Assembly (NCBI RefSeq): GCF_044324875.1
Contig: NZ_CP172185.1
From: Escherichia coli
GTDB lineage: Bacteria; Pseudomonadota; Gammaproteobacteria; Enterobacterales; Enterobacteriaceae
DNA: 64,000 bases
Direction: 5' to 3' (one strand)
The stretch's first letter is position 1, and each line of letters opens with the position of its first letter. The notes under the pieces are model-generated. The model had not been told where the DNA came from. It saw only the letters and a program-made list of their open reading frames with translations, and did not search any database. A program made the position numbers and the translations under genes. Positions 4,545-63,557 of the stretch are shown here, piece by piece.

Positions 4545-6479
4545 TTAAGACGATTTACGTACGCGCAAATACCATTCGCACAGTAAACGCACCTGTTTAC
4601 GGGTGTAGCCTTTTTCCATCATACGGTCGACAAAATCGTCGTGTTTCTTCTGCTCGTCGGTTGACGTTTTGGCGTTAAACGAAATAACCGGCAACAGCTC
4701 CTCGGTATTGGAGAACATTTTCTTCTCAATAACCGTGCGCAGTTTTTCATAGCTGGTCCAGTTAGGATTGCGTCCGCTGTTATTCGCTCTGGCGCGCAGT
4801 ACGAAGTTAACAATCTCGTTGCGGAAATCTTTTGGATTACTGATCCCCGCCGGTTTCTCGATTTTCTCCAGCTCGGCGTTAAGAGACTCGCGGTCAAACA
4901 ACTGCCCGGTATCCGGATCGCGATACTCCTGATCCTGAATCCAGAAATCCGCGTAGGTAACATAACGGTCGAAAATGTTTTGCCCATATTCGGAATAGGA
5001 TTCAAGGTAGGCCGTCTGGATCTCTTTGCCGATAAACTCGGCATATTTCGGGATCAGATAACCTTTCAGGAACTCCAGATAGCGTTCTGCCTGCTCTTGC
5101 GGGAACTGCTCGCGCTCGATCTGCTGTTCCAGGACGTAGAACAGATGGACCGGGTTTGCCGCCACTTCTACATGATCGAAGTTGAACACGCGGGAGAGGA
5201 TCTTAAACGCAAAACGCGTCGACAGACCGTTCATCCCTTCATCGACACCGGCGTAGTCACGATATTCCTGATACGACTTGGCTTTGGGATCTGTGTCTTT
5301 CAGACTTTCGCCATCATAAACCCGCATCTTTGAATAAATGCTGGAGTTTTCTGGCTCTTTAAGGCGCGAAAGAATGGAAAAACGTGACAGCGTTTCCAGC
5401 GTGCCAGGGGCGCAGGGGGCGTGAGTCAATTCACTGTGATTAAGCAATTTCTCGTAGATTTTGATCTCTTCGGAAATGCGCAAGCAATACGGCACCTTCA
5501 CGATGTATACACGATCGAGGAAGGCTTCGTTGTTTTTGTTATTACGGAAAGTGACCCATTCGGATTCGTTCGAGTGGGCGAGAATAATCCCGTTGAACGG
5601 CAGGGCGGAGATACCTTCCGTCCCGTTGTAGTTACCTTCCTGAGTGGCGGTTAGCAAGGGATGCAGCACTTTAATCGGTGCTTTAAACATCTCAACGAAT
5701 TCCATGATCCCCTGATTGGCGCGGCACAGCGCACCGGAATAGCCGTAGGCGTCCGGGTCATTCTGCGCGTAGTGTTCGAGTTTACGAATATCGACTTTCC
5801 CAACCAGCGCGGAGATGTCCTGGTTGTTCTCATCACCGGGTTCCGTTTTGGCGATAGCAATTTGTTGCAGAATTGACGGCCAGACCTTCACTACCCGGAA
5901 CTTAGTGATATCGCCACCAAATTCATGCAGGCGTTTTGCCGCCCACGGCGACATGATGGTGCCGAGATAACGGCGAGGAATGCCATACTCTTTTTCCAGA
6001 ATCTGCGCATCTTCCTGCGGATTGAAAAGACAGAACGGATGATCGTTGACCGGGCTACGCTCACCGTTGGCGCTCAATACATAAATCGGTACGAGCTGCA
6101 TTAATGATTTCAGTCGCTCAGCAAGCGATGATTTACCCCCACCCACAGGCCCCAGCAGATACAGGATTTGTTTCTTCTCTTCCAGCCCCTGAGCCGCGTG
6201 TTTCAGATAAGAGACAATCTGTTCAATCGCGTCTTCCATGCCGTAAAACTCTTCAAATGCCGGATAACGTGCAATGACCCGGTTAGAAAAGAGTCGAGAA
6301 AGTCTGGGTTCCTGGGCTGTATCGACCATGACAGGCTCACCGATAGCCATCAATAGCCGCTCAGCCGCGTTGGCATAAGCACTGCGATCTTGCCGACAAG
6401 TGGTAAGAAACTCCTGCAGTGTGAACTCTTCGTCCTTGGCAGCTTCATATCGCTGGCGATAGTGATCGAATATATTCAT
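4545..6479 (-). CDS. yeaG: PrkA-family serine protein kinase YeaG
   Basis: 644-aa ORF with Walker-A-like GPVGGGKSS motif; recognised YeaG sequence. Confidence 0.92.
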   Translation of the reverse strand: MNIFDHYRQRYEAAKDEEFTLQEFLTTCRQDRSAYANAAERLLMAIGEPVMVDTAQEPRLSRLFSNRVIARYPAFEEFYGMEDAIEQIVSYLKHAAQGLEEKKQILYLLGPVGGGKSSLAERLKSLMQLVPIYVLSANGERSPVNDHPFCLFNPQEDAQILEKEYGIPRRYLGTIMSPWAAKRLHEFGGDITKFRVVKVWPSILQQIAIAKTEPGDENNQDISALVGKVDIRKLEHYAQNDPDAYGYSGALCRANQGIMEFVEMFKAPIKVLHPLLTATQEGNYNGTEGISALPFNGIILAHSNESEWVTFRNNKNNEAFLDRVYIVKVPYCLRISEEIKIYEKLLNHSELTHAPCAPGTLETLSRFSILSRLKEPENSSIYSKMRVYDGESLKDTDPKAKSYQEYRDYAGVDEGMNGLSTRFAFKILSRVFNFDHVEVAANPVHLFYVLEQQIEREQFPQEQAERYLEFLKGYLIPKYAEFIGKEIQTAYLESYSEYGQNIFDRYVTYADFWIQDQEYRDPDTGQLFDRESLNAELEKIEKPAGISNPKDFRNEIVNFVLRARANNSGRNPNWTSYEKLRTVIEKKMFSNTEELLPVISFNAKTSTDEQKKHDDFVDRMMEKGYTRKQVRLLCEWYLRVRKSS

Positions 6480-15803: not shown

Positions 15804-17183
15804 ATGGAACAGATAACAAAACCGCATTGTGGTGCACGGCTGGATCGCTTACCGGATTGCCGCTGGCATTCGTCAATGTTTGCCATCGTCGCGTTTGGCT
15901 TGCTTGTCTGCTGGAGTAATGCCGTTGGTGGCTTGATCCTCGCGCAGCTGAAAGAGTTGGGCTGGACAGATAATTCCACCACTGCCACATTCTCAGCAAT
16001 CACGACCGCCGGAATGTTTCTCGGTGCGCTGGTTGGCGGCATCATCGGTGACAAAACCGGTCGCAGAAATGCGTTCATCCTCTATGAGGCCATTCATATT
16101 GCCTCGATGGTGGTCGGTGCTTTTTCACCGAATATGGATTTCCTTATTGCCTGCCGTTTTGTGATGGGCGTTGGGCTGGGAGCTTTACTGGTGACGCTGT
16201 TTGCTGGTTTCACCGAATATATGCCCGGTAGAAATCGCGGAACGTGGTCCAGTCGGGTTTCTTTTATTGGCAACTGGTCATATCCGCTCTGTTCATTGAT
16301 TGCGATGGGACTCACGCCGCTGATTAGTGCAGAGTGGAACTGGCGGGTACAACTGCTTATCCCTGCAATATTGTCGCTTATCGCTACGGCGCTGGCCTGG
16401 CGCTACTTTCCTGAATCCCCGCGCTGGCTGGAATCGCGCGGACGGTATCAGGAAGCCGAGAAAGTCATGCGGAGTATAGAAGAAGGCGTCATACGCCAGA
16501 CGGGAAAACCTTTGCCGCCCGTGGTTATTGCTGATGACGGTAAAGCGCCACAAGCGGTGCCGTATTCAGCCTTACTGACAGGAGTATTACTGAAACGCGT
16601 GATATTAGGTTCTTGTGTGCTGATTGCCATGAACGTTGTGCAGTACACACTAATTAACTGGTTGCCAACAATATTCATGACCCAGGGGATTAATTTAAAA
16701 GACTCGATTGTTTTAAATACCATGAGTATGTTTGGTGCGCCATTTGGTATTTTTATTGCCATGCTGGTGATGGATAAAATTCCGCGTAAAACAATGGGTG
16801 TGGGGCTATTAATCCTGATTGCGGTGCTCGGATATATCTATTCACTGCAAACCAGTATGTTGCTCATAACGCTGATTGGTTTCTTCCTGATTACTTTCGT
16901 CTATATGTACGTTTGCTATGCCTCGGCAGTGTATGTCCCTGAGATCTGGCCGACAGAGGCCAAATTACGTGGCTCCGGTCTGGCGAATGCGGTAGGGCGA
17001 ATCAGTGGTATTGCCGCACCTTATGCCGTTGCAGTGCTGCTCAGTAGTTATGGCGTAACGGGAGTCTTTATTCTTCTGGGGGCTGTTTCAATTATTGTCG
17101 CAATTGCTATCGCCACCATTGGAATTGAAACTAAAGGTGTCTCCGTTGAAAGTTTAAGTATTGATGCAGTAGTCAATAAATAA
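15804..17183 (+). CDS. ydjK: MFS transporter YdjK
   Basis: 459-aa ORF, 12-TM MFS topology, GDKTGRR-type loop motif. Confidence 0.88.
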   Translation: MEQITKPHCGARLDRLPDCRWHSSMFAIVAFGLLVCWSNAVGGLILAQLKELGWTDNSTTATFSAITTAGMFLGALVGGIIGDKTGRRNAFILYEAIHIASMVVGAFSPNMDFLIACRFVMGVGLGALLVTLFAGFTEYMPGRNRGTWSSRVSFIGNWSYPLCSLIAMGLTPLISAEWNWRVQLLIPAILSLIATALAWRYFPESPRWLESRGRYQEAEKVMRSIEEGVIRQTGKPLPPVVIADDGKAPQAVPYSALLTGVLLKRVILGSCVLIAMNVVQYTLINWLPTIFMTQGINLKDSIVLNTMSMFGAPFGIFIAMLVMDKIPRKTMGVGLLILIAVLGYIYSLQTSMLLITLIGFFLITFVYMYVCYASAVYVPEIWPTEAKLRGSGLANAVGRISGIAAPYAVAVLLSSYGVTGVFILLGAVSIIVAIAIATIGIETKGVSVESLSIDAVVNK

Positions 17184-40411: not shown

Positions 40412-41197
40412 TTAGTTCCGGATGTTTAAACGTGATATGCGCGGAGCCCTTCTTAAAGTATCTGATACTGAACATCTCATCTTCATAGCACTCTTTACCC
40501 TGAACAGACTGGATGTGCCATCCTGATGAATGGTTATGTTTTTCCCGTTGCCGGGGATGGGGGTGCCGCTGAACAGATGTAGCATTCTTTCCAGGTCGGC
40601 GAGTCGGTCAGTCTGTTGTCCGGTGATAAGATGAAATCCCCACCGGTCCCATCTCACCAGATTGTTGATAATGATTTTACTTCCAAATTTACAGGGAGAG
40701 TTGGTTTTATAATTCCAGCTCAGTTCCCTGAAGACGTTAATCACTCCCCGCTTAAACACCTCATCCTTGTTCTGGTGCACTTGTTCAAATGTGCTCAGAA
40801 TGTTCGCTTCACTGATTTCCGGAAAATTATCATATTCCAGTGACCTGTACCATGTATCACGTGCCTGTGCATCCATTAAGGAAAGCATCCCGGAACGCTG
40901 CATCAGGTTACGCCAGATTTCGCGGTCAAGATTCCGGGTAATGGCTTTCATTGCGGTTTCCTGTTTCTCCTTCAGCCAGCAGCCACAGCGAAAATCCTGT
41001 TTCATGGCCCAGTCCGGGGCGGTTTTACCTCCAATACTTTCCGTCAGAATTGAGATTTTAGCCAGTTGCCGGATAAGTGTGTCGATTGGCAACAGTGTAC
41101 TCTTTCGTACAGCCAGAATGTGGCAGACTGAGGTGGAACAGATAACGTCCGTATGCCCGCTGACCACCTCCGGGCGGGAGAGTGTGGTATCTGACAT
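40412..41197 (-). CDS. Island protein, DUF4942-like (gene commonly found after cbtA/yeeW in CP4-type islands)
   Basis: 261-aa ORF at the distal end of the toxin-antitoxin cassette; family assignment is from memory of typical cassette order, not a search. Confidence 0.5.
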   Translation of the reverse strand: MSDTTLSRPEVVSGHTDVICSTSVCHILAVRKSTLLPIDTLIRQLAKISILTESIGGKTAPDWAMKQDFRCGCWLKEKQETAMKAITRNLDREIWRNLMQRSGMLSLMDAQARDTWYRSLEYDNFPEISEANILSTFEQVHQNKDEVFKRGVINVFRELSWNYKTNSPCKFGSKIIINNLVRWDRWGFHLITGQQTDRLADLERMLHLFSGTPIPGNGKNITIHQDGTSSLFRVKSAMKMRCSVSDTLRRAPRISRLNIRN

Positions 41198-41281
41198 AAT
41201 CGTTTTTCCTTTTTGCAGATAAATGAAAACGCCAGCTCTGTTCAGGCTGGCGTCAGGAGAATGAAGTCTGGTGAGTGAGAT

Positions 41282-41707
41282 TCACCGGTTCTGGTGCAGA
41301 AGTTGCAGTTGGTGCAGGGTACGGATATCCTCCCTGGCCTGTTCGATACAGGGCAACAATGCTGCCGAATCCGTTTTATCCTCATCGTTGTCGAAAATAA
41401 TTCCGGACCCGCAGTCGATATTGTCCTGCAGCCACGCAATGAGGATATCCAGCGCTGTTTCAGTGGTTAATGGCATCACGCTCTGTATCACTGTATTGTC
41501 TTCCGGCAACTGATGAGAGCTGGCAGAAGTCGCCGGTGTTTCGGTAGCGTCACGTTCATCCACCACGCGGAGTGAATAACCGTATTCAGCGACCTTGTTA
41601 ATCAGTTCAGTGAGCTCAACACCATCAATGTCAACGACAATTCGCCCTATATTCAGTGCCTGTACGTTAACGCTGTCTGCTTCCAATGTCAGGGCCAGTT
41701 TCATCAT
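41282..41707 (-). CDS. YeeW-like protein (DUF5983-type)
   Basis: 141-aa acidic ORF whose start overlaps the cbtA-like stop (ATGA), as in yeeV-yeeW. Confidence 0.55.
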
Positions 41708-42078
41708 TTCGCCTCCGGATACTTACCCAGGGTAATGTTATTTACCGTTCTGTAATTGTCGCGGGTCATCAGGCCGGTCGCCCTGCGAGCCCGGAGGATA
41801 TCGATGCTGTTTATTAACTGAGAGCGGGTACAGGCGCTGAATCCCGGCTGGTCGGTACGCACCAGCGCGTATTTTTCCACGAGAAAGTTCACCGCATCAC
41901 ACAGTGAAATGCCTGCCTCAATATGCAGCTCAATCACGCGTTCATCCGCGAACGGTGTGTCATTCAGCGTAAGGCTGTAATGCTGGTCCAGTAACCGGGT
42001 GAGCAGTGTCTGCCAGATGGTGACGGGAGACGGGCAACACGATGCCTCCCGTACATGCGTGTCGGGTAATGTTTTCAT
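41704..42078 (-). CDS. cbtA: CbtA/YeeV-family toxin (type IV toxin-antitoxin system, cytoskeleton-binding toxin)
   Basis: 124-aa [37 protein letters not shown]... matching the YeeV/YkfI/YpjF family. Confidence 0.85.
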
Positions 42079-42167
42079 AATGAAGATTTTCCTGATATGC
42101 AGAGATAAAAAATGGGACAGTGGCGTGGTGAAAACACCAGGCCGGAGCAGAAGATTATTCTGATGAT

Positions 42168-42536
42168 TTACTTTTTCGTTTCGGGCGTCGGATAAACAGC
42201 CAGATAAACGTAACCACAGGAGCCGAGGGTGTCGGCTTCACAGGTCAGCCCCTTCGCATACAGTGTCACGGTATGCTGATGGCGGGGATTCAGTTCACCG
42301 CTGGTGAGCATGAGCTCCAGTTGTTTCATCGGCAGCGGAAAGGCCTGGTCCGGATGGTACGCATCCGCATCTCTGAACCGGCCTCTGATACCGGCACGGT
42401 CGGCAAGGTAATGCAACCGGTTACCCTCCTGCACCAGACGTGCCCCGAAACAGGGCGTCACGGTGCAGGGCAGTCCCCACCAGAGGCGGTCGTGATTGTC
42501 GTCGTGATGCGTTGTCCCGGGGAGTGTGTCTGACAC
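42168..42536 (-). CDS. cbeA: CbeA/YeeU-family antitoxin
   Basis: 122 aa from GTG 42534-42536 ([48 protein letters not shown]...); RBS GAGG about 10 nt upstream; the track ORF is extended upstream in frame. Confidence 0.85.
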
Positions 42537-42585
42537 GATAAAATCCTCACAGAAAATCGTTGAATGATAGTTTAACTTTGACAGG

Positions 42586-43230
42586 TCAGCCGGTGCGCAG
42601 ACCGGCTTCGGTGAAGGTGTATTCGTTGATGAGAAGGGCCTCATCCACAGGGGCATCTGAGGTCAGCCTGTTGTGCTCGTTTTCCAGTTGACGGTACAGC
42701 CAGAAGGCCAGGTCGCGCAGGGCTTCGCTGACAGCGGCTTCCGCATCTGTTGTCATAGTCTGACCAGTCGGACTGTTCCGGGTAACAGTGATATCCATGC
42801 TGTACGGATGGCAGTAGCGTCCCCGGCGGTGGATTTCAGCCTGCAGTTGCCAGAAGTTACGCTTCTGCACCGCCTGCAGGGCATCCGCGATACGATGGAG
42901 TTCATGCTCCTGTGGGGCATACTTCCGGATTATCCGGGCTGTCGCCGGCTGCCAGTGCCAGCGTCCTTCAAAACAGGCTCCGTCCCCCTGGCTGCAGCAT
43001 CCGCTGAACCAGATGCACGGCTCTTCCATAAACCTGCCGTTGCTGAGCCGGAAAACGCGCTGGCGGAGGTCAATTCCGAAAATGTCACAGACCGCCCTGA
43101 AGTCCTCATACACGTTTTCATACCAGTTGCTGTCAGCATGATGCTGACGGTACCCGTCGCGGGCTTTTCCCCGTACCGGGCAGGAAAGTTCATCCAGCGT
43201 ATACACTGTGATGGTGATAATGCTGCTCAT
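42586..43230 (-). CDS. Cysteine-rich hypothetical protein (214 aa), unrecognised family, inserted between the DUF987 and antitoxin genes
   Basis: ATG 43228-43230 with RBS AAGGGG 7 nt upstream, 18 bp after the DUF987 stop; 10 Cys including a CIWFSGCCSQGDGAC cluster; no family recognised by me. Confidence 0.5.
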   Translation of the reverse strand: MSSIITITVYTLDELSCPVRGKARDGYRQHHADSNWYENVYEDFRAVCDIFGIDLRQRVFRLSNGRFMEEPCIWFSGCCSQGDGACFEGRWHWQPATARIIRKYAPQEHELHRIADALQAVQKRNFWQLQAEIHRRGRYCHPYSMDITVTRNSPTGQTMTTDAEAAVSEALRDLAFWLYRQLENEHNRLTSDAPVDEALLINEYTFTEAGLRTG

Positions 43231-44024: not shown

Positions 44025-44504
44025 TCAGTCAATGATGCGCATAATGGCGCTGCATTCCGGATGCTGCAGGGCGTAATCCCGCAGACGGTAATAATGAACC
44101 GTCATGGCATAACACTCCGTACGGCAGGCGTGATGACTGTACGTCATCAGACAGGCAGCAATGCCGGCGGCTTCCGGGCTCATTTCAGCGCGGTTACCGT
44201 TCATGGCATTGAACAGTACCCATGTTTCGTCATCATCATCATCCGGTTCGGGGGCCATAAATGCCCCGCCGTTGTTCAGGGTGTACAGATTCCAGATACC
44301 ACCGCAGTAGTCTTCGCACAGACGGTCCATCCAGCCGAAGACACTGGGCTCCAGGGTCACCCACTGTGGAATGAGGCCAAAATGCTGCGGCCAGAAGCTG
44401 ATGCGCTGTTCATCAGGGACGAGGCTGGCAACCAACTGAGGCGGATTATTCTCTGGTGTTGTAGCTGAATAAATTGTGGGGGTATTCTGAGAAACGGTTT
44501 TCAT
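44025..44504 (-). CDS. Antirestriction protein (KlcA/ArdB-like, YfjX/YafX family)
   Basis: 159-aa ORF with acidic stretch EPDDDDDE and the conserved C-terminal region of island antirestriction proteins. Confidence 0.85.
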   Translation of the reverse strand: MKTVSQNTPTIYSATTPENNPPQLVASLVPDEQRISFWPQHFGLIPQWVTLEPSVFGWMDRLCEDYCGGIWNLYTLNNGGAFMAPEPDDDDDETWVLFNAMNGNRAEMSPEAAGIAACLMTYSHHACRTECYAMTVHYYRLRDYALQHPECSAIMRIID

Positions 44505-44585
44505 GAGATAACGCCTTAAATAACAAATAAATGTGTGTTTTTCAGGAACGAAAGCTGAATGATTCCCTCACTCAGGGAAACGGCA

Positions 44586-45404
44586 TCAGCGCATGCTCTC
44601 CAGCAGCGTTTCTGCCATCACCCACAATGCGCGGTTGAGTTTTATATCGGTATCAATGCTGTGAATGGCCCGGGTATGGATACGTTTTCCTTTTGCACTG
44701 CGACCGGAAATCCCGCCTTTCAGCATATTCTCCTGGATGGTCTGATAAGCACTCCACAGGTCCTTACCGTAATCCTCCCGGCGTCGTGGTGTCAGAATGT
44801 CGGCGGTGGTGACGGGCTGATGTTCGTCACCATAACGGTAAGTCAGTGCCGCCTGTGCCAGCGCCTGGCGTGCCGGTGGCGGCAGGACCAGCGACTGCAT
44901 GGCATCACGCTTCTCCTCTATCCGGTCAAACACGCCCACCACCTCGTAAGCCCCTTCAATGACTCTGTCCACCACATTTCCCCGGTGCGGAACACGCACT
45001 TCCCCCCGAGACTGACCGCAGACGCATCCGTTCTGGCAGACGAACCTGAAGTAACCCGGCAGCATCTGGTAGCTGGAGGTACCGTCATGAGAGTTGAGCA
45101 GAATAATTTCAGGGACATGTTGTCCGTTTATCTCCCCGTCACGGCGCAGACGCAGCATGTGTTTGGTATACCCCCGGCGACCCGGGTCACGTACGCGGGT
45201 CTGGCAGGCGAAGAATGGCTGAAAGCCTTCCCGCTGCAGGCTTTCCAGCACGGTGATGGTGGGGATGTATGTATAGTTCCGGCTCCGGGAGGTGTGTTTA
45301 TCTTCCCCGAAAATCCCGGGCACATGGTGCATCAGCTCTTCACGGGTCAGCGGACGGTCACGGCGTATCTGGTTCGCATAACCAAAACGACTGGCTAATC
45401 GCAT
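44586..45404 (-). CDS. DUF932-family protein (YfjQ-like)
   Basis: 272-aa ORF, ATG with RBS GGAG; conserved first gene of the antirestriction-radC-TA cassette. Confidence 0.8.
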   Translation of the reverse strand: MRLASRFGYANQIRRDRPLTREELMHHVPGIFGEDKHTSRSRNYTYIPTITVLESLQREGFQPFFACQTRVRDPGRRGYTKHMLRLRRDGEINGQHVPEIILLNSHDGTSSYQMLPGYFRFVCQNGCVCGQSRGEVRVPHRGNVVDRVIEGAYEVVGVFDRIEEKRDAMQSLVLPPPARQALAQAALTYRYGDEHQPVTTADILTPRRREDYGKDLWSAYQTIQENMLKGGISGRSAKGKRIHTRAIHSIDTDIKLNRALWVMAETLLESMR

Positions 45405-45447
45405 ACTTTGCTCCTTATCAGTGGTTAAGACTGAATGACGTAATCAA

Positions 45448-45481
45448 TGAAAAAGCCGCGTCTCACGGAGAAGACGCGGCC
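45448..45481 (-). terminator. Rho-independent terminator after the secreted-protein/small-ORF pair
   Basis: Hairpin gccgcgtct-cacggaga-agacgcggc followed on the minus strand by T5. Confidence 0.5.
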
Positions 45482-45504
45482 TGATGGATGAAATGAATGA
45501 GGGT

Positions 45505-45657
45505 TTACCGAAGCCCTTCAGCATTGTGGTGACGCAACCGGAAATGCGTTCCCTGATCATCTTCAATAAGCACATTGCGGTAAGCTGTTGTGACAGCCAT
45601 CGCCTGTTCGCGTGAGAAAGGGCCTTCGGGCAATAAAACAGGGTGACAGTCCGACAT
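45505..45657 (-). CDS. Small ORF (50 aa), tightly coupled downstream of the 225-aa secreted protein
   Basis: ATG 6 bp after the upstream stop; [41 protein letters not shown]...; below the ORF-track length cut-off; resembles small island proteins but family not verified. Confidence 0.3.
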
Positions 45658-45662
45658 ACCGG

Positions 45663-46340
45663 CTATTTTCCGATAAATTCAACGCTGGCGCCGGTGGCAT
45701 TACCGTCAGCACCAACCGTGACGGTCACTTTGTCGTACGCACGGTCTTCAGGATTGAACACTTCAAACTCAACCTTATTGCCTTTTACTTCGTAAGAGCC
45801 AAAATCAGCGGTTTCTGTTATTTCCTCGTCATATTCCCGGGCGTATGCCTGCCGGGCAGCCTGCAGGACGGAATCTTTATTAATAGTGGTCGTCTGTTTC
45901 GGGGAAAAACCGGCAAGTGATGTGACAAATTTCGGACAGACCTTCAGCATATCACCGCGGGTGAATTCCATTCGTACACCAAATGCCTGTAAAACGGACA
46001 CATCACGCTCTGCTATGGAGTGAACGGCTTTTTTGACCATTTCCGGCGCCTGTCCGACTTCCACCTCAACAGCCCTGAATCCTGTCTGCTGATTACACAT
46101 TTGTGATGTGGGGATCAGGTTACCGTTAATACTGATACGGTTGCCCAGGAGCGTCTGTACGCCATTCGGGCATCCCTGCATCAGGCCGGTAATACCAATC
46201 GTGCCATTTTTCAGCATTACCAGCGCCTGACCATCTTCCGTCATGGTCTGACACCAGCCGTTTTTGACAGCCCAGTTGCCGGCGGAGGCGGAGAATGATG
46301 CCACAGTGAACAGCAGGGGAAAAAGAATTCTGGTATTCAT
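45663..46340 (-). CDS. Secreted/periplasmic hypothetical protein (225 aa) with signal peptide
   Basis: N-terminus [23 protein letters not shown] (signal peptide with AxA-type cleavage site); RBS GAGG; occupies the cargo slot between the GTPase and DUF932 genes. Confidence 0.6.
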
Positions 46341-46458
46341 GACTGACCTCTGAAATTAAAGAGCGTGTTATTGATAATGACAGACGGTATACGGCAGTGG
46401 TTACCGTAATCCGTTGTCGTGTAAAGGTATACGGTTGCCACGGGGGACTCCGGAGCGT

Positions 46459-47343
46459 TCAGAACAGGTGATCCCACAGAGTGACCAGCAGGTGGATAAT
46501 GCGGTCCCGGGTTTTGCGCAGAAGCTGTAACATCCAGGCCGGAAAACTGAAACGGGCAACGGCGTCGTCAAAACTTTTCCCGATGGTTTCACCAAAAGTC
46601 TGTTGTGCGTGTTTCTGGACCCGTTCAGAGCGGTTTTCCCCCCGGATATGTGAATAAACCGCGCTGGTTGCCTGTGGCGGCAGTGCGTGGATCATCAGTG
46701 ACACCAGTGCCGGAATATTCCAGCCGACAGGCGCGGCAACGGGGAGTACCGGAAATGATGAAGGGAACAGGGTTGCCACCCGGGCTGTCACCGTCGCCAG
46801 CGAGAGTTCCTGGTGACGGGACGGGCATTTTTCTGTGTCGTTCCATTCTTCAGCAGGAAATACGCGATCGGCATGGCTGAGAACAAACAGAAAACGCGAG
46901 GGATCTGCACCTTCATTCAGTAAAAACTGATGCATGGCGATGTCGGCAGCATACGCACGTTCATCAGCCCGCAGGATCCAGATAATCAGATCCAGTTCGG
47001 GCAGTAACTGACTGTAAAGTGCCCGGTATTCCTGATCATGCTGTGGTGTTTCGCCAGTGCCGGGCAGATCGACCAGCGTCATTCTTCGTTCACCGGGCTG
47101 AAAGGTAAGACGATGAGCCTGACGGGTGCAGCCGTTCAGCGGATGCGTGGCGCAGACACGGGACTGAAAAATGGCATTGCACAGGCTGCTTTTTCCGGCA
47201 CCGGATTTACCCATAATGCCAATCACGGGCTCGTAATGAATAACACTGTGGAGATGTTCAAGGATTTTCTGGCGAATTTCTTCAGGAAGAAACGTCAGAT
47301 ATGATTTCACTTGTGCGGAGAGGGAAGAATGGCTGAATGACAT
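46459..47343 (-). CDS. YeeP/YfjP/YkfA-family GTPase
   Basis: 294-aa ORF with P-loop GIMGKSGAGKSS and G3 motif DLPGTG; typical lead gene of CP4-type island cassettes. Confidence 0.85.
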   Translation of the reverse strand: MSFSHSSLSAQVKSYLTFLPEEIRQKILEHLHSVIHYEPVIGIMGKSGAGKSSLCNAIFQSRVCATHPLNGCTRQAHRLTFQPGERRMTLVDLPGTGETPQHDQEYRALYSQLLPELDLIIWILRADERAYAADIAMHQFLLNEGADPSRFLFVLSHADRVFPAEEWNDTEKCPSRHQELSLATVTARVATLFPSSFPVLPVAAPVGWNIPALVSLMIHALPPQATSAVYSHIRGENRSERVQKHAQQTFGETIGKSFDDAVARFSFPAWMLQLLRKTRDRIIHLLVTLWDHLF

Positions 47344-47448
47344 ACCGGTATCCTGTTGATTTCACTGAACCGGATCACACTAATCCGGTTTATCATTCAG
47401 GTAATATGGGCGTGAAAAAATCTGGAGTGACAAAGTTCGGGAGGAGTG

Positions 47449-48399
47449 ATGGCATCACTGTCGATTAATACGCTACGCCGAATGAGCATTTGTAAAAGTC
47501 AGGCCTGGAAAGATACCCAGCGAATACTGAAGCGTAGTGGACTTGTGTACAGAGGGGAACGGTCAGAATCGTTTGATCCTGAGAAACATTTTAATCGTTA
47601 TACGGTGCGTTATCTGTACCTGCTTAACATAATTGCGCTTAAGATAAGGTCGGTTAGTAAATTTTCCTGTTGGATCGAGGTGGGACAATGCCATCGTATG
47701 ACTGGTAAACATTTATCTCTTAATGCCCCGCCTTTTATGCTGATTCCGCGTAGTATCCGGAGAAAAGTGGATGGATTCAGACAGTCAAAAGGTGAAGCAA
47801 CCCCAAAATCGGCTCAACCGTTCACGGGCAGTTTGTATGAGGTTTTGAGAAAGGAGAGCGATTCAGCTAAGCTGGACGCATGGATTGCTGAACTGCCTCT
47901 GAACTTGCAGGAGGAGGGAAAGGAAATCTCAGTCATGGGATTTAGTCCACGGGCTGTGGCCCGACCTGTTCTTCGGTCAGCATCCCCGACGTTTGAACTG
48001 TTTTATCAGGAGTATCAATCCCTAAGATTAAAATCTGTTTTTAAATTTGAACCAAGATTTGAACAACTTTTAACAAGACTGAGCTTTAGAAAACAATCAA
48101 TTCTCAGAAAACAACAATACAGGGTTAAATCGCAATTACTGGAGAGACTGGGGAATGTGTTGTTTTTCACGTCGCTTTATAACCAGGGATGTTTAGAGGA
48201 GTTTATAAATGCACTTGTGGAAAAGGAGGACATTTATCTGAAAATGTCCCCTGGGGAGGAAAAGGTGAAAGCACACCAGAAAATGGTTAACTACATTGAA
48301 GCGTTCTGCAACAAAATGACGGAAAAATACCTGATGCCCGCAGCAAGCAGACACTACAAAAAGAAGAAAATCGCCAGGAGCGAAAGTGGTGAAAGTTAA
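47449..48399 (+). CDS. Hypothetical protein (316 aa), low GC, unrecognised family
   Basis: Strong RBS GGGAGGAG 4 nt before ATG 47449; divergent from the GTPase gene; basic and coiled-coil-rich; no motif I can assign. Confidence 0.55.
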   Translation: MASLSINTLRRMSICKSQAWKDTQRILKRSGLVYRGERSESFDPEKHFNRYTVRYLYLLNIIALKIRSVSKFSCWIEVGQCHRMTGKHLSLNAPPFMLIPRSIRRKVDGFRQSKGEATPKSAQPFTGSLYEVLRKESDSAKLDAWIAELPLNLQEEGKEISVMGFSPRAVARPVLRSASPTFELFYQEYQSLRLKSVFKFEPRFEQLLTRLSFRKQSILRKQQYRVKSQLLERLGNVLFFTSLYNQGCLEEFINALVEKEDIYLKMSPGEEKVKAHQKMVNYIEAFCNKMTEKYLMPAASRHYKKKKIARSESGES

Positions 48400-49184
48400 T
48401 CCAGTCTACCGTACAGAATCAGTTGTTCCAGAATAGCCTGCTGTGTTGTTTTCCGCTCTCTGGTCAGTCTGTCCAGAGCGCTTTTTGCGGATGGCGATAT
48501 CTTTACGTTGATTTGTACCCGTTTATCTTTTTTTCCATCGATAAACTGTTTTCTGAATGCATTGTGCATCTTGTCGAAAAATCTTTCTTTTGCAGCGAAT
48601 CCTAGGTGAAATTCTTTTGGCGTCAGTAAACAGGGTGTGTCTGTGGGGAATAACATTTTTAGTAAAACTACAATGGCAATATATCTTTCGTTATCATTTA
48701 CAGGATTAAACCAGGAAAGATATGTGGGTGAGATACGTGCATCAATATATTCCCATGCCCATTTCAGTTGTTCGGTATTCTTTTTAAGCCATTTGGCTTC
48801 GTTTCTCTTTTCGAGTCCCAGCCAGTTTTGATGCATTATTGAGATAATCCGATCTGCTTCCCCATAAAGGATTAACGCATTAATCCATTTCCCTATAACA
48901 TTCAGTCGTGTTTCATGACTTGAAGGAATAATTGTCATGGGGTTATCCTTCATAACGATCACCCCCTTCAAGGCAGAGTTGAACTCAGATTCATTATTAA
49001 GTTTAAGTTTTTCGGGAACTGTATGAGACATAATTAACCAGAACCAGAATGCTGCAATTTCATTTTTTCTGATCCATTCAGGTATGTGATTATCTGCCAG
49101 ATTATTATCATTCAATAAATGCTCAGTTGTTTTATTTTTCCAGTCATATCTATTCACGTTATAACCGCCTTTATATTGTTTCAT
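48396..49184 (-). CDS. Hypothetical protein (about 262 aa), low GC, C-terminal ribbon-helix-helix-like segment
   Basis: ATG 49184 with RBS GAGG 8 nt upstream (the track ORF starts 29 codons earlier); stop overlaps the convergent gene stop by 4 nt; C-terminus KISPSAKSALDRLTRERKTTQQAILEQLI resembles RHH DNA-binding folds. Confidence 0.5.
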   Translation of the reverse strand: MKQYKGGYNVNRYDWKNKTTEHLLNDNNLADNHIPEWIRKNEIAAFWFWLIMSHTVPEKLKLNNESEFNSALKGVIVMKDNPMTIIPSSHETRLNVIGKWINALILYGEADRIISIMHQNWLGLEKRNEAKWLKKNTEQLKWAWEYIDARISPTYLSWFNPVNDNERYIAIVVLLKMLFPTDTPCLLTPKEFHLGFAAKERFFDKMHNAFRKQFIDGKKDKRVQINVKISPSAKSALDRLTRERKTTQQAILEQLILYGRLD

Positions 49185-49804
49185 CTGATTACGCCTCAAT
49201 CGTTTTCTTTTCTGGTGATTTTCACCATCACATGTCAGTTGTATATGCAAGGGGATCAATAAAAATATCACCCTGCAAGCACTTCAAAGCTGATTATGGG
49301 GATATTCTAGAACTATTCACAAAACTATTCCAGACATATCAAGAACTATTTCTTGACCTATTCATAATAAAATAAAACATGCTATCAACTACGGCTCATA
49401 TTCTCCTTGGGGGTGTCGTTGTACTGTTCGACTGTTCTTGTGGTCAGATTAACAATCTGAAGAGTAAAAGCGACAGTAATCTGTCTGTTATAGTGGCGAT
49501 AAAAACACTGAATGCGCATCCTGTATGTGAAATCCTGTCATGTAGAGCAGTAAGCAATGACAGACATGCATGTTATATGTGAAGGGGGCCGGGAGACGAC
49601 ATAATCAGTATGGCTGTCATTCTGGTTGTAAAACGCGATCACTTTCCGGGGGTAAAAGATGATATGGAGGTTGACAAACGGTTTGCTTCGGATTGTCTTT
49701 TCTGGGGCCTGAAATACGAGGGCAGAAAAATAATTCCAGAGTAAATCTGCTCTGTTTTTAGGACAGAAAACTCCATGCTGGCTGTAAAAGTGAAAAATTA
49801 ACAC

Positions 49805-55938: not shown

Positions 55939-56649
55939 GTAGTCAAAAATGGTAGATATTTACGATGCAGTAATGCTTTCACTCCGGTAATTAATTTCCG
56001 TGATTAACTGCTTTCGATCAATAAAGGAATTGCAAAAGTGTGATCTTGTTCACGACATTGTGGATGATAATATGCCTGATGTCTGAATCCGGAAACAGTG
56101 ATCTGGCGGTTTCATGTGAAGTTGACGGATAAAAAATCCGCACGACCAGACAGACGTGCGGTTTACGAAATTCGTAACAAGAGGCTTTTCTACGGATCAC
56201 GTGGTGCGTGCCACGTGAAATTTTTGTAGCGCAAAATGTGTGATGTGTAAATACAAGGAAGGAAAAAAGTTAAATCGGTGGAAGTCCATGCCTGCCACAT
56301 GTATGTCTGCATTCCTCGTTTTGAACAGAATTCTCACCAGACATCGTGAATTTCTCATTCAATCATCAGAGATATTACCCAGGATTTTTATTGTTTTGTG
56401 ATAGCAGTACTTTAAATGTTCAGATGCTAAAATAAGCGCGCTTATTATAATTATAGTTATGATGTTTTATCTGTATGTATTTTAATGATTTTCGCGTCAT
56501 TGCTTTTCTGCTGCTTAAATTGAAGGCGCATATTATACACAATAATATTCCTGGCATTATTAAATTAATAAAAGAGGATTCTTATCACTGTATTTTTGCT
56601 CCGCACTACCGTTCTGGCTGGTGAAGTAATAATACAGGAGAATAACAGA

Positions 56650-58197
56650 ATGCTTAAAAGACGTGATGCTTTTTTAAAGAAAAGCGCGCTGGCAGTGAGT
56701 GTGGCCCTGCTGCTCTCGGCTCAGGCTCAGGCTCAGGATATTTTAATCGGACCGATTGAACCTGGCGAAGATAATAGCTTTCTTGTTGGAGAATCAGTAG
56801 CTGGCCGTTCGATTGATAAAGTAAGAAATGTATGGTTGATTGGTGATGATTCTTTTTTATTAGACTCAAACAGGACTGTGCTTTTGGGGAATAATTCTGA
56901 TGTTGTGAACTCTCCGGGAAGTGTGAGTCTGGGGCATGATGCACTTATTGCTGACTCTGAATGGGGGACTGTTGCAGGAAAAGAAGCGTCACTTATTTCT
57001 TCTCGTCAGAGCTCGGCAATTGGTGCGTTTTCATCTGTGCAGGATTCTACCAGTTCTGTAGCTCTGGGCCATGGCTCACAGGTGTCGGGAGAAAATAACG
57101 TGGTATCTGTTGGTGCCGGGCCTGAGGGATATGGAGAGAGTGTCAAAGGAGCACCGGAAACCCGCCGGATTATAAATGTGTCTGATGGTATCAATAACAC
57201 AGATGCAGCGACGGTAGGGCAACTGAATGAACGATTTGATGATGCACAGGTCTTTTTGTTGCAGACGAATGAAAGAATTGACGAGACAGATAAACGTCTT
57301 TCAACAGTTCATGCTGAACTCAGCAGGGATATTATTGCAGGCACATCGGCAGCGGTGACGTATACAGATGTAACAGCGCTTGCACTTCAGGATGAGATAA
57401 AGGATGGGACGAACAAAGTACGTGATGAGTTGAAATCACAGGGAGACAGTCTGCGTGGTGAGATAGGCGGTGTATACAGAGATGCCCGTGCTCATACTGA
57501 CAGTCAGGTCACAGCAGTACGTGATGAACTGAAGGCAGAGGGAGACAGTCTGCGCGGTGAGATAGGCGGTGTATACAGAGATGCCCGTGCTCATACTGAC
57601 AGTCAGGTTACAGCAGTACGTGATGAACTCAGCAGGGATATTATTGCAGGCACATCGGCAGCGGTGGCGTATACGGATGCATCTTCTCTTGCTCTTCAGG
57701 ATGAAATAAAAGAAAAAGCGGATGAAACAGTTCAGGTTTCCCGGGCTTATACAGATAAAAGTGTACGGGATGCCCGTAAAGAAGCGAAAAGCCAGGCAGA
57801 ACATCTCAGCGATGTGCTTGTGAAGAACAGGGCGCAGACGGATGCAGCAATAGCCTCAAATACAGCAGCGATAAGGAATAACAGTCATCGTCTGGATTTG
57901 ACGGAAGCCTGGCAGAAGATGGCGACAGAGAGAATGAATAATATGCAGGAGCAGATTAAAGAGAACCGGAAGGAGTTAAGGGAGAGTGCAGCCCAGAGCG
58001 CGGCACTGGCAGGTCTTTTCCAGCCATACAGTGTTGGAAAATTTAACGCGACAGCAGCCGTTGGTGGTTACCGTGATGAGCAGGCCATTGCGGTGGGCGT
58101 GGGCTACCGTTTCACAGAGAATGTGGCAGGAAAAGTTGCAGTTGCTGCAGGTGGGTCATCCGCATCGTGGAATGCTGGTGTGAATTTTGAGTTCTGA
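56650..58197 (+). CDS. YadA-type trimeric autotransporter adhesin (515 aa; Eib/Saa-like size class)
   Basis: Signal peptide [29 protein letters not shown], repetitive coiled-coil stalk, and C-terminal YadA-like anchor ending ...[19 protein letters not shown] 9 nt upstream; AT-rich 5' region. Confidence 0.8.
57313..57730 (+). repeat. In-frame tandem and nested repeats inside the adhesin stalk
   Basis: A 105-bp unit (...[33 protein letters not shown]) occurs twice in tandem (about 57424-57528 and 57529-57633), flanked by two copies of a second roughly 100-bp unit ([16 protein letters not shown]...ALQDEIK) at 57313 and 57625. Confidence 0.7.
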
Positions 58198-58788: not shown

Positions 58789-59115
58789 ATGACTAAAAAT
58801 ACTCGTTTTTCCCCCGAAGTCCGTCAGAGGGCGATTCGTATGGTTCTGGAAAGTCAGGGCGAATATGACTCACAGTGGGCGGCAATTTGTTCCATTGCCC
58901 CAAAGATTGGCTGTACACCGGAGACTCTGCGTGTCTGGGTACGCCAGCATGAGCGGGATACCGGAGGCGGTGATGGCGGGCTCACCACCGCTGAACGTCA
59001 GCGTCTGAAAGAGCTGGAACGTGAAAATCGTGAACTGCGCCGCAGTAACGATATCCTTCGCCAGGCTTCCGCTTATTTTGCGAAGGCGGAGTTCGACCGC
59101 CTCTGGAAAAAGTGA
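58789..59115 (+). CDS. IS629 transposase OrfA
   Basis: 108-aa [63 protein letters not shown]... matching IS629 OrfA. Confidence 0.9.
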
Positions 59116-60002
59116 TGCCACTGCTGGATAAGCTGCGTAAGCTGTACGGGGTCGGACCGGTATGCAGTGAACTACATATTGCCCCGTCAACGTATTACCA
59201 CTGTCAGCAACAGCGACATCATCCTGATAAACGCAGTGCCCGTGCGCAGCGCGATGACTGGCTGAAGAAAGAGATACTGCGCGTATACGATGGGAATCAT
59301 CAGGTATACGGTGTGCGTAAAGTCTGGCGTCAGTTGTTACGGGAAGGAATCAGGGTAGCCAGATGTACAGTGGCGCGCCTCATGGCGGTTATGGGACTTG
59401 CCGGTGTTCTCCGGGGTAAAAAGGTCCGCACTACCGTCAGCCGGAAAGCCGTTGCCGCAGGCGACCGCGTAAACCGTCAGTTTGTGGCAGAACGTCCTGA
59501 CCAGTTGTGGGTGGCTGATTTTACTTACGTCAGCACATGGCAGGGGGTCGTCTATGTGGCGTTCATCATTGATGTGTTTGCCGGATACATCGTGGGGTGG
59601 CGGGTCTCATCGTCTATGGAAACGACATTCGTGCTGGATGCTCTGGAGCAGGCGTTATGGGCCCGTCGACCGTCCGGCACAGTCCATCACAGTGATAAAG
59701 GTTCTCAGTATGTATCGCTGGCCTACACACAGCGGCTTAAGGAAGCCGGATTACTGGCATCAACAGGAAGTACTGGTGACTCGTATGACAACGCGATGGC
59801 GGAGAGCATCAATGGCCTTTACAAAGCGGAGGTAATACACCGTAAGAGCTGGAAAAACCGGACAGAAGTGGAGCTGGCCACACTCACGTGGGTGGACTGG
59901 TATAACAATCGACGATTGCTGGAAAGGCTGGGCCATATCCCACCGGCAGAAGCAGAAAAAGCTTATTATGCTTCCATCGGAAACGATGATCTGGCAGCCT
60001 GA
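59112..60002 (+). CDS. IS629 transposase OrfB (DDE integrase core)
   Basis: 296-aa ORF overlapping orfA by 4 nt; motifs [16 protein letters not shown] and [15 protein letters not shown]. Confidence 0.9.
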
Positions 60003-62018: not shown

Positions 62019-63557
62019 TTATTCAGCTGGCAGTGCTATGCGCCACGGAAGCAGTTCGCTGACCCGGTTGACCGGCCAGTCTGCTATGACGCCAAGCACA
62101 TGGCGAAGGTAGCTTTCTGGATCCACGTCATTCAGTTTGCACGTCCCTATCAGGCTGTACAGTAGCGCTCCCCGCTCACCACCATGGCCAGAGCCGAAGA
62201 ACAGGAAGTTTTTACGACCCAGACTTACCGCCCGCAGGGCATTTTCAGCGATGTTGTTGTCGATTTCCACCCAGCCATCGTTCGCATAGTACGTCAGTGC
62301 CGGCCACTGGTTAAGTGCGTACGCGAACGCCTTCGCCAACTCTGAGTGTCGCGACAGGGTCTTCATCTTTTCACGCAACCAGCTTTCCAGGGATTTCAAC
62401 AGCGGTTTCGTTTTTCGCTGACGTTCAGCAAGCCGCTGCTCTGCCGGCATTCCCCTTATATCCGCCTCTATGGCGTACAACTGACCGATCTGCTCCAGGG
62501 CTTCTTCCGTCAGTGCTGACGGGATGCGGACGTGCACATCGTGGATCTTTCGGCGGGCATGAGCCCAGCAGGCAGCTTCCGTTATCCCACCATTGCGATA
62601 CAGCTCGTTGAACCCGGCGTACGCATCCGCTTGCAGCACACCGCTGAAGCAAGCAAGATGAGTCTGCGGATGGATGCCTTTTCTGTCCGGGCTGTAAGCG
62701 AACCACACTGCAGGTGCCAACGCTGACCCGGCATTGCGGTCATCACGAACATACGCCCACAACCGCCCGGTCTTCGTCTTCTTATTACCCGGCATCAGTA
62801 CCTGGACCGGGGTATCATCGGCATGGAGTTTGCCGTCAGTCATGACATAGCCATGAAGCGCCTCTTCCAGCGGAGACAGCAGCCGGCAGCATGCATCCAC
62901 CCAGCCCGACAGCAGTGAACGGCTCAGCTCCACACCTTGCCGGCCGTATATTTCTGACTGGCGATACAGCGGGGTGTGCTCTGCATACTTCGAGGTCAGC
63001 ACGCGGGCCAGCAGCCCCGGTCCGGCGATACCCCGCTCGATGGGCCGCGAAGGTGCAGGTGCCTGCACGATGGCATCGCACTGAGTACAGGCATGTTTTT
63101 CCCGTACCGTCCGGATAACCCGGAAGGCGCTACGCATCAACTCCAGCTGTTCGGCGGTATCCTCGCCCAGATAGCTCAGTGAACCGCCGCAGTTCGGGCA
63201 GCACGGCGCCGCAGGCAACAGTCGCTTTTCGTCACGGGGTAGTGATTCAGGGAACGGCTTACGGATGCGGGTCTGACGCAACGGACGCTGTACTGCCGGG
63301 TCATACACCCTACCAGTCAGCGTATCGCTCTCTTTCTGAAGCCGGTTCAGATCGGCTTCCATTTGTGCGATACGGCGGGAGACTTTTTCGGAACGACTGC
63401 CGAAGTTCATCCGGCGGAGTTTATCCAGCTGCGCCTGCAGATGGTCTATTTCGCGCTCCCGGTTGCTCAGCTTTTCCTGCAGGGCGTGGATCAGCGCTTC
63501 CTGTTCGGCCAGGCGCTGTTTCAGCAGGAAGATGTCGTCAGAAGAGATGTCGTTCAT
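62019..63557 (-). CDS. IS66-family transposase (large ORF)
   Basis: 512-aa ORF with N-terminal coiled coil ([20 protein letters not shown]), zinc-finger CCPNCGG...CTQCD and DDE core typical of IS66 transposases. Confidence 0.85.

Follow-up and report, generated by a model that had tools for sequence, protein, structure and literature searches.

Cryptic CP4-type islands are among the commonest accessory elements of Escherichia coli and its relatives, and most of the genes conserved in them lack an assigned function. In the CP4-44 island of strain MG1655 the genes run in the order yeeP-isrC-flu-yeeR-yeeS, with flu encoding the autotransporter adhesin Ag43, and in CP4-57 the genes yfjP and yfjQ (DUF932) are adjacent. 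Islands of the same family in K-12 (CP4-57 and CP4-6) encode small exported proteins without known function, such as YfjS, YfjT and YafY. Here we describe a stretch of 64,000 nucleotides (nt) from an E. coli contig (NZ_CP172185.1, assembly GCF_044324875.1), referred to in its entirety as the window, which is an E. coli CP4/P4-type island and in which a YeeP/YfjP-type GTPase gene and a DUF932 gene are separated by a gene for a predicted exported protein of 225 amino acids (aa), called X225 below. As a sequence, X225 is common and already catalogued as a 'hypothetical protein'; as biology, it represents a family that awaits characterisation and has both a clear signature in its genomic position and a good structural model. 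An original prediction made from the letters of the window had described X225 and a small open reading frame (ORF) behind it as an operon of exported cargo, and the minus strand does contain the two ORFs, each with an ATG start.

The X225 gene (45663–46340, minus strand; WP_001097365.1) lies between the gene for a 294-aa GTPase upstream (46459–47343, minus strand) and the DUF932 gene downstream (44586–45404, minus strand). Genomic context was fetched for 11 X225 homologues, two of which were on contigs too short to show neighbours, leaving nine informative cases. The GTPase-to-DUF932 slot was occupied in seven of these nine lineages, homologues with 24–61% identity to X225 included, and in the slot cases the X225 homologue was found either directly upstream of DUF932 or one to two genes away from it. 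Besides two other E. coli islands (L007 and L008, 98–99% identity to X225), the slot held homologues from Klebsiella (P0015, 61%), K. aerogenes (P0070, 38%), Serratia fonticola (P0077, 33%), a metagenome (P0103, 26%) and a genome assembly (P0100, 24%). One metagenomic homologue (P0084, 32%) lies upstream of DUF932 in a fetched stretch that contains no GTPase gene, and another (P0106, 33%) is encoded on a related island with AlpA, REP_ORF2-G2P and WYL regulator genes, on a contig that ends before any DUF932. Because homologues down to 24% identity hold the GTPase-to-DUF932 position in most of the lineages checked, X225 is a slot-specific, semi-backbone family of CP4/P4-integrase-type islands and not random cargo; the idea of an idiosyncratic insert, implied when the gene was first described as cargo, has to be given up. 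The clear exception is a third metagenomic homologue (P0074, 35%; 5001–5693 of locus L021), located on a phage-like 32-kb contig of packed co-directional ORFans that includes an endolysin-like Hydrolase_2 gene. Neither P0074, searched by tblastn, nor this contig had a relative among 50,697 phage records.

The slot invites comparison with the exported proteins of the K-12 islands. The MG1655 gene order bears out the earlier statement that Ag43 takes the equivalent position in CP4-44: like X225, it is an exported product encoded directly after a YeeP-type GTPase gene. Ag43, however, is a 1,039-aa autotransporter adhesin, whereas X225, with its 225 aa, is predicted to be soluble and to fold into two domains; it lacks the passenger domain and β-barrel of an autotransporter, and no autotransporter Pfam domain was matched. 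YfjS, YfjT and YafY are likewise small exported proteins, and in CP4-57 the genes yfjS and yfjT lie downstream of yfjR, a homologue of which precedes X225 relatives in other lineages. X225 differs from these proteins in having a signal peptidase I (SPase-I) site rather than a lipobox and in being encoded upstream rather than downstream of DUF932. Homology to YfjS or YfjT, raised at the outset as a result that would reduce X225 to a common characterised island gene, was looked for and not found: BLASTP did not align X225 with YfjS and gave E = 0.56 with YfjT, and the hhalign probability was 0.1%. X225 is indeed common, as detailed below, but it is not characterised; no functional study of it emerged from literature searches on the accessions of the proteins, on DUF905 and on YfjR.

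In several lineages, a YfjR-like WYL/helix-turn-helix regulator of 226–229 aa is encoded one or two genes upstream of the X225 homologue (L008 2224–2904; L009 5250–5939; L014 1760–2443; L022 4269–4952; L023 3767–4453). These regulators share 43% identity with K-12 YfjR and about 50% with one another. The gene is absent from the window, where the position it occupies elsewhere is taken by a 118-nt intergenic leader (46341–46458, minus strand). Read directly, the leader contains GAGG 7 nt 5' of the X225 ATG, and a repeat search identified two exact GGTATACGG direct repeats within it (46386–46394 and 46426–46434), 40 nt apart. A 9-mer repeat within 118 nt has a chance expectation of only a few per cent, and the GGTATACGG repeats could be an operator.

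X225 is predicted to be exported by the Sec pathway and cleaved by SPase-I. Its first 20 residues (46281–46340, minus strand) consist of an n-region (MNTR), a 12-residue h-region with a mean Kyte-Doolittle hydropathy of 2.27 and a c-region (SASA), with cleavage predicted before G21 of the sequence GNW. The charged n-region, an h-region within the range of 7–15 residues and small residues at positions -3 and -1 are those of an SPase-I substrate, and the signal peptide proposed originally, with its n-, h- and c-regions and A-x-A site, therefore appears credible. No further hydrophobic or transmembrane segment was found in X225, the maximum hydropathy over 19 residues of the mature part being 0.99. 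The A-x-A site followed by GNW is retained in 17 of 20 aligned signal peptides, while the sequence of the h-region drifts. Distant homologues carry a lipobox, L-[TS]-G-C, at the same position, followed by Asp in most of them; X225 itself has none, with Gly after the predicted cut and its first Cys at residue 30. The mature protein would have a mass of about 22 kDa and an isoelectric point of about 5.2.

Several homologues are longer (P0084, P0093, P0096, P0100, P0103, P0105 and P0110, from loci including L013, L014 and L022), with 377–491 aa, and carry at their C-terminus an additional domain of ~120 aa (NAFCTLDNGK...FHY...RFNKG.YDY...HEC) that had no Pfam match; in some of them a second PepSY-like module is present. 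Five of these (P0096, P0100, P0103, P0105 and P0110) are predicted lipoproteins, mostly with Asp at +2, and P0084 and P0093 retain an SPase-I type signal peptide. Since Asp is found at +2, the lipoprotein relatives of X225 are probably tethered to the inner membrane.

The mature part of X225 is strongly conserved. Among 21 homologues with 55–98% identity, 60 alignment columns are invariant, and W23, C30, C57, N72, C82 and C135, four of them cysteines, remain invariant down to about 18% identity. Orthologues from E. coli and Klebsiella were compared for the ratio of non-synonymous to synonymous divergence (dN/dS), which was approximately 0.13–0.22, with 124 changes at third codon positions vs 54 and 48 at the other two; within E. 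coli, only 2–8 substitutions are available for such an estimate. The invariant columns and cysteines, the low dN/dS and the presence of the gene in 1833 of 5426 complete E. coli genomes establish X225 as a real, constrained gene. Trp, Asn, Gln, Thr, Ser and Gly make up most of the invariant residues in the N-terminal domain (NGWCQT, QGCPNG, NGN..PTSQ.CNQQTG), as is typical of surfaces that bind sugars. This composition fits an alternative that casts X225 as an accessory factor of the envelope or biofilm type, which would bind a carbohydrate or a peptidoglycan component and alter surface properties without inhibiting any protein. Such an accessory would be positionally analogous to Ag43 in the same slot of CP4-44 and to the exported proteins of the YfjR-controlled ypjK-yfjS-yfjT genes of CP4-57. 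A YfjR-like regulator gene directly precedes X225 homologues in several lineages, and genomic systematic evolution of ligands by exponential enrichment has connected the yfjR operon with biofilm formation (PMC8249747). We nevertheless consider this explanation unlikely.

The 1833 E. coli genomes that encode X225 (34% of the complete genomes) contain it in 2406 places, with up to five copies per genome. Nearly all of these copies are at least 95% identical and the great majority are intact at 225 aa; the uropathogenic E. coli strain 536 is a carrier. The annotation is hypothetical protein in every case. Outside chromosomes, X225 was found in 5 of 72,556 plasmid records, some of which are apparently chromosome-sized, and tblastn detected it in none of the 50,697 phage records. 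When 1.84 billion cluster representatives were searched exhaustively with HMMER, only 58 matches were returned, two of them spurious: P0098 and P0108, large repeat proteins, were rejected as relatives because they matched through low-complexity sequence. The matches bearing organism names all belong to genera of Enterobacterales, and a profile of the N-terminal domain searched against a set of 5.8 billion proteins did not extend the family past 'hypothetical proteins' of this order. Many fragmentary X225 ORFs are also present in the databases.

The family diverges quickly between lineages, where X225 homologues share 26–37% identity compared to 50–76% for the adjoining GTPase and DUF932. The architecture changes as well, from secreted protein to lipoprotein and through the addition of domains. 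Fast divergence of this kind is typical of envelope proteins that engage variable partners. A different pattern was observed among the E. coli islands. When positions 44500–47400 of the window were compared with L007 and L008, the X225 DNA was 98–100% identical, whereas the GTPase gene was 87–99% identical, the 5' half of DUF932 71–87% and the flanks 71–95%; synonymous divergence (dS) was 0.02 for X225 vs 0.17–0.55 for the flanks. This mosaic of a near-identical X225 and diverged flanks suggests that the X225 segment was recently exchanged among E. coli islands by recombination.

The absence of X225 from described families, also noted at the outset, is confirmed by the searches performed here. 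With an E-value cutoff of 10, no Pfam family was matched by the protein, 18 of its homologues or its isolated C-terminal domain, with one exception: the PepSY model (PF03413) matched a single distant family member at 3.3e-3, and did not match X225 of the window. No match was found in NCBIfam, PHROGs or the anti-phage defence models of PADLOC, nor among PDB sequences searched by phmmer and with profiles of the N- and C-terminal domains. Because no enzyme signature emerged from the Pfam, NCBIfam, PADLOC and PDB sequence searches, X225 is read as a non-enzymatic protein.

The AlphaFold model of full-length X225 consists of two small globular domains, with a predicted local distance difference test score (pLDDT) of 77.6 that falls below 50 for residues 1–15. 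When the N-terminal domain was modelled in isolation with a diverse alignment (residues 20–142), pLDDT rose to 91.6, with a predicted template-modelling score of 0.85. The N-terminal domain (residues ~21–142; 45915–46280, minus strand) is modelled as a β-rich domain with the four invariant cysteines and a possibly IalB-like fold, and the C-terminal domain (residues ~153–225; 45666–45884, minus strand) as an α+β domain with a helix-on-sheet arrangement that may resemble cystatins and PepSY domains. The structural matches share 5–17% sequence identity with X225 and represent resemblance at the level of the fold, not family membership. Foldseek searches of AFDB50 retrieved only uncharacterised relatives and weak matches labelled lipocalin, META or IalB.

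IalB of Bartonella (PDB 3dtd; PF06776) is 5–9% identical to X225 and its Pfam model gave no match at E ≤ 10, and only the X225 family shows the four-cysteine pattern together with the motifs NGWCQT and NGN. Since the molecular function of IalB itself is not known, the likeness transfers no mechanism. It does raise the possibility that X225 is a host-interaction or virulence factor, as has been proposed for IalB, that is carried on pathogenicity islands and aids invasion or colonisation. This appears highly improbable to us: the identity to IalB can be as low as 5%, X225 is present in a third of E. coli, commensals included, and it is not evident how a periplasmic protein processed by SPase-I would reach the cell surface. 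The identical locus in E. coli SCU-115, which matches the window at 100% over a 1061-bp region, comes from a rectal swab of a healthy student. The C-terminal domain recalls inhibitory domains such as the PepSY domains of YpeB, YpmB and M4 propeptides, the cystatins, and the colicin M immunity protein Cmi. X225 differs from these in having no significant match to their sequence models and no adjacent gene for a cognate protease, hydrolase or toxin.

Taken with the genomic data, the predicted structure leads us to propose that X225 is a soluble, disulfide-bonded periplasmic protein that protects the host of the island by binding or inhibiting an envelope-acting protein, a reading to which we assign an even chance. 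After export, the four cysteines would form two disulfide bonds and the mature protein would remain soluble in the periplasm, where it would act by binding and not by catalysis. It would most likely sequester or inhibit an envelope-acting protein, which could be a hydrolase, a toxin or part of an entry machinery, and in doing so would provide the host of the island with a protective function resembling immunity or exclusion. The proposal is based on the inhibitor-like fold of the C-terminal domain, the switch between periplasmic and lipoprotein forms, the rapid divergence from lineage to lineage and the location on mobile elements.

A number of observations weigh against this proposal. No partner, toxin or hydrolase gene is adjacent to X225 at its locus, and the idea of a binder or inhibitor consequently leans on a weak fold analogy at 5–14% identity. 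Helix-on-sheet folds are very common, membership of X225 in the PepSY and IalB families is unsupported by sequence models, and we know of no molecular mechanism for IalB itself. Up to five nearly identical copies of X225 occur in one genome, and because several such copies coexist, a strong role in self-exclusion is unlikely. Finally, no match to a sigma-70 consensus promoter was found on the minus strand of the 118-nt leader. Extending the protective role to the whole family is a bolder step, in which X225 and its relatives would form an unrecognised class of island-encoded periplasmic protective factors that combine an IalB-like sensor or binding domain with a PepSY/cystatin-like inhibitory domain, are secreted or lipid-anchored and neutralise attackers of the envelope. 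Candidate targets would be a phage entry hydrolase, a colicin, or a type VI secretion system effector acting on peptidoglycan or lipid II. We regard this wider version as unlikely.

The small ORF behind X225 (45505–45657, minus strand, ATG start; WP_001696589.1) was originally taken for its exported partner in a two-gene operon. The tight spacing and the shared terminator stand: the TAG stop of X225 and the ATG of the small ORF are separated by 5 nt (CCGGT), slightly fewer than the 6 bp first counted, and the two genes may share one transcript, possibly continuing from the GTPase gene, that would stop at a rho-independent terminator (45453–45482, minus strand). The description of this terminator as clean is fitting, as it lies 22 nt 3' of the small-ORF stop, consists of a 12-bp stem containing seven GC pairs followed by UUUUUCAUU, and has a folding energy of -21.5 kcal/mol (z = -5.55 against dinucleotide shuffles). 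What does not stand is the export of the second product. The 50-aa protein has no hydrophobic segment and matches the cytoplasmic-type DUF905/UPF0401 family, and it was rejected as an exported partner. It aligned with Pfam DUF905 (PF06006) with an i-Evalue of 2.5e-14 and 53.5 bits, covering only positions 2–42 of 70, with YkfF (PDB 2hjj) in phmmer at E = 7.1e-14 (residues 6–48 on 4–46) and with PHROG 8779 at 3.1e-10; in SCU-115 it is labelled 'DUF905 family protein'. No PADLOC model matched it. The DUF957-type assignment suggested for it earlier was likewise dropped, as the Pfam scan gave DUF905 only. The DUF957 gene of the island is a separate gene located further downstream (16982–17179 of locus L001).

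The window copy of DUF905 is incomplete. A complete domain comprises about 70 model positions in proteins of ~77–83 aa, and the 50-aa product falls short of this length. Other E. coli islands (L007 and L008) contain an intact allele of 234 bp, encoding 77 aa, at the same position, and DNA alignment with these two loci shows that about 80 bp have been lost internally in the window. The junction of the deletion (45498–45513, minus strand) creates a new TAA stop (45505–45507) and leaves the terminator untouched, whose stem is conserved in the loci with intact DUF905. The segment removed encodes the C-terminal WRCWNFEPDAG..., which is kept in the 77-aa allele of most E. coli. The sequence across the junction was found in 94–95 of the 5426 complete E. 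coli genomes and the intact 3' end in 1887, making the deletion a minority allele. Nor is the pairing itself obligatory, since Klebsiella loci lack DUF905 and have an analogous terminator directly after the 225-aa gene, followed by DUF932. In another lineage (locus L013), DUF905 is preceded by a 223-aa gene; compared with X225 to see whether the two are paralogues, it proved unrelated.

Judged by its sequence, the 50-aa ORF is thus a cytoplasmic-type leading-region gene truncated by a deletion of about 80 bp, and it is probably non-functional. Like YkfF and YubL of plasmid F, it belongs to DUF905/UPF0401, matching the family over its first ~48 residues, and like them it lies in a leading-region-like module, here with DUF932, antirestriction and RadC genes; it differs in being shortened by the deletion and in its partial coverage of the model. 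For this ORF, functionless baggage is the favoured reading. That X225 and DUF905 are jointly decaying baggage, hitch-hiking with the CbtA/CbeA toxin-antitoxin genes and the rest of the island, seems very improbable. The truncated DUF905, the many fragmentary X225 ORFs in databases and the other pseudogenes of the island could all be seen as decay. X225, however, is intact in the great majority of its 2406 places, shows a dN/dS of ~0.13–0.22, retains its cysteines and motifs across ~18–60% identity and keeps its synteny across genera.

The company of DUF905 bears on one more alternative, in which X225 assists the transfer or establishment of the island from within the periplasm and serves as an adaptor to a helper conjugative type IV secretion system (T4SS) or to the recipient envelope. 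DUF905 genes are present in more than 5000 plasmid records, mostly conjugative, and cluster near psiB/psiA in plasmid leading regions (PMC12826799). The leading-region-like neighbours of X225 (DUF905, DUF932, antirestriction and RadC) and its fixed position beside DUF932 would agree with a role in transfer. A part that interacts with a T4SS is expected on plasmids, yet X225 was found on only 5 of 72,556 plasmid records; VirB8-like scores were below those for cystatin and PepSY folds, and no T4SS genes were present on the islands in the loci inspected. We judge this alternative decidedly improbable, and the protective periplasmic binder remains our preferred reading of X225.

The surroundings of the locus show features of a CP4/P4-type island with signs of decay. 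The GTPase upstream of X225 gave small-GTPase domain matches in NCBIfam, is labelled 'GTPase family protein' in SCU-115 and had only sub-threshold P-loop matches in PADLOC. Its gene is adjoined by two convergent ORFs with overlapping 3' ends (47446–48399, plus strand, 317 aa; 48396–49271, minus strand, 291 aa), which had no PADLOC match and are labelled hypothetical proteins in SCU-115. Genes for antirestriction, RadC/JAB, DUF987, CbeA and CbtA proteins follow 3' of DUF932, and a search of positions 40–50 kb of the window against Rfam found no RNA families. Such signs are seen at 40412–43230: in the identical locus of SCU-115, the 214-aa ORF (42586–43230) is annotated as a pseudogene because of an internal stop, DUF4942 has a frameshift and only part of DUF5983 is present. 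On the far side of the island (56596–58197, 59112–60002 and 62019–63557) are a gene for a YadA-like trimeric autotransporter adhesin and transposases of the IS3 and IS66 families. Collinearity with SCU-115 is lost past ~58.7 kb.

For annotation, these results correct the logic applied to the small ORF: it is a DUF905 gene cut short, and does not encode a partner for secretion. For experiment, X225 offers a concrete and cheap functional target, being slot-specific, present in 34% of complete E. coli genomes, not covered by any Pfam model and endowed with a confidently predicted N-terminal domain. If X225 is not a protective factor, it is one more hypothetical periplasmic protein. If it is, a factor for immunity or exclusion at the envelope would help explain why decaying islands persist; the wider, family-level version would also account for the faster evolution of the family than of its neighbours between lineages, and would lend a selectable benefit to the cryptic CP4-type islands that a third of E. 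coli possess.

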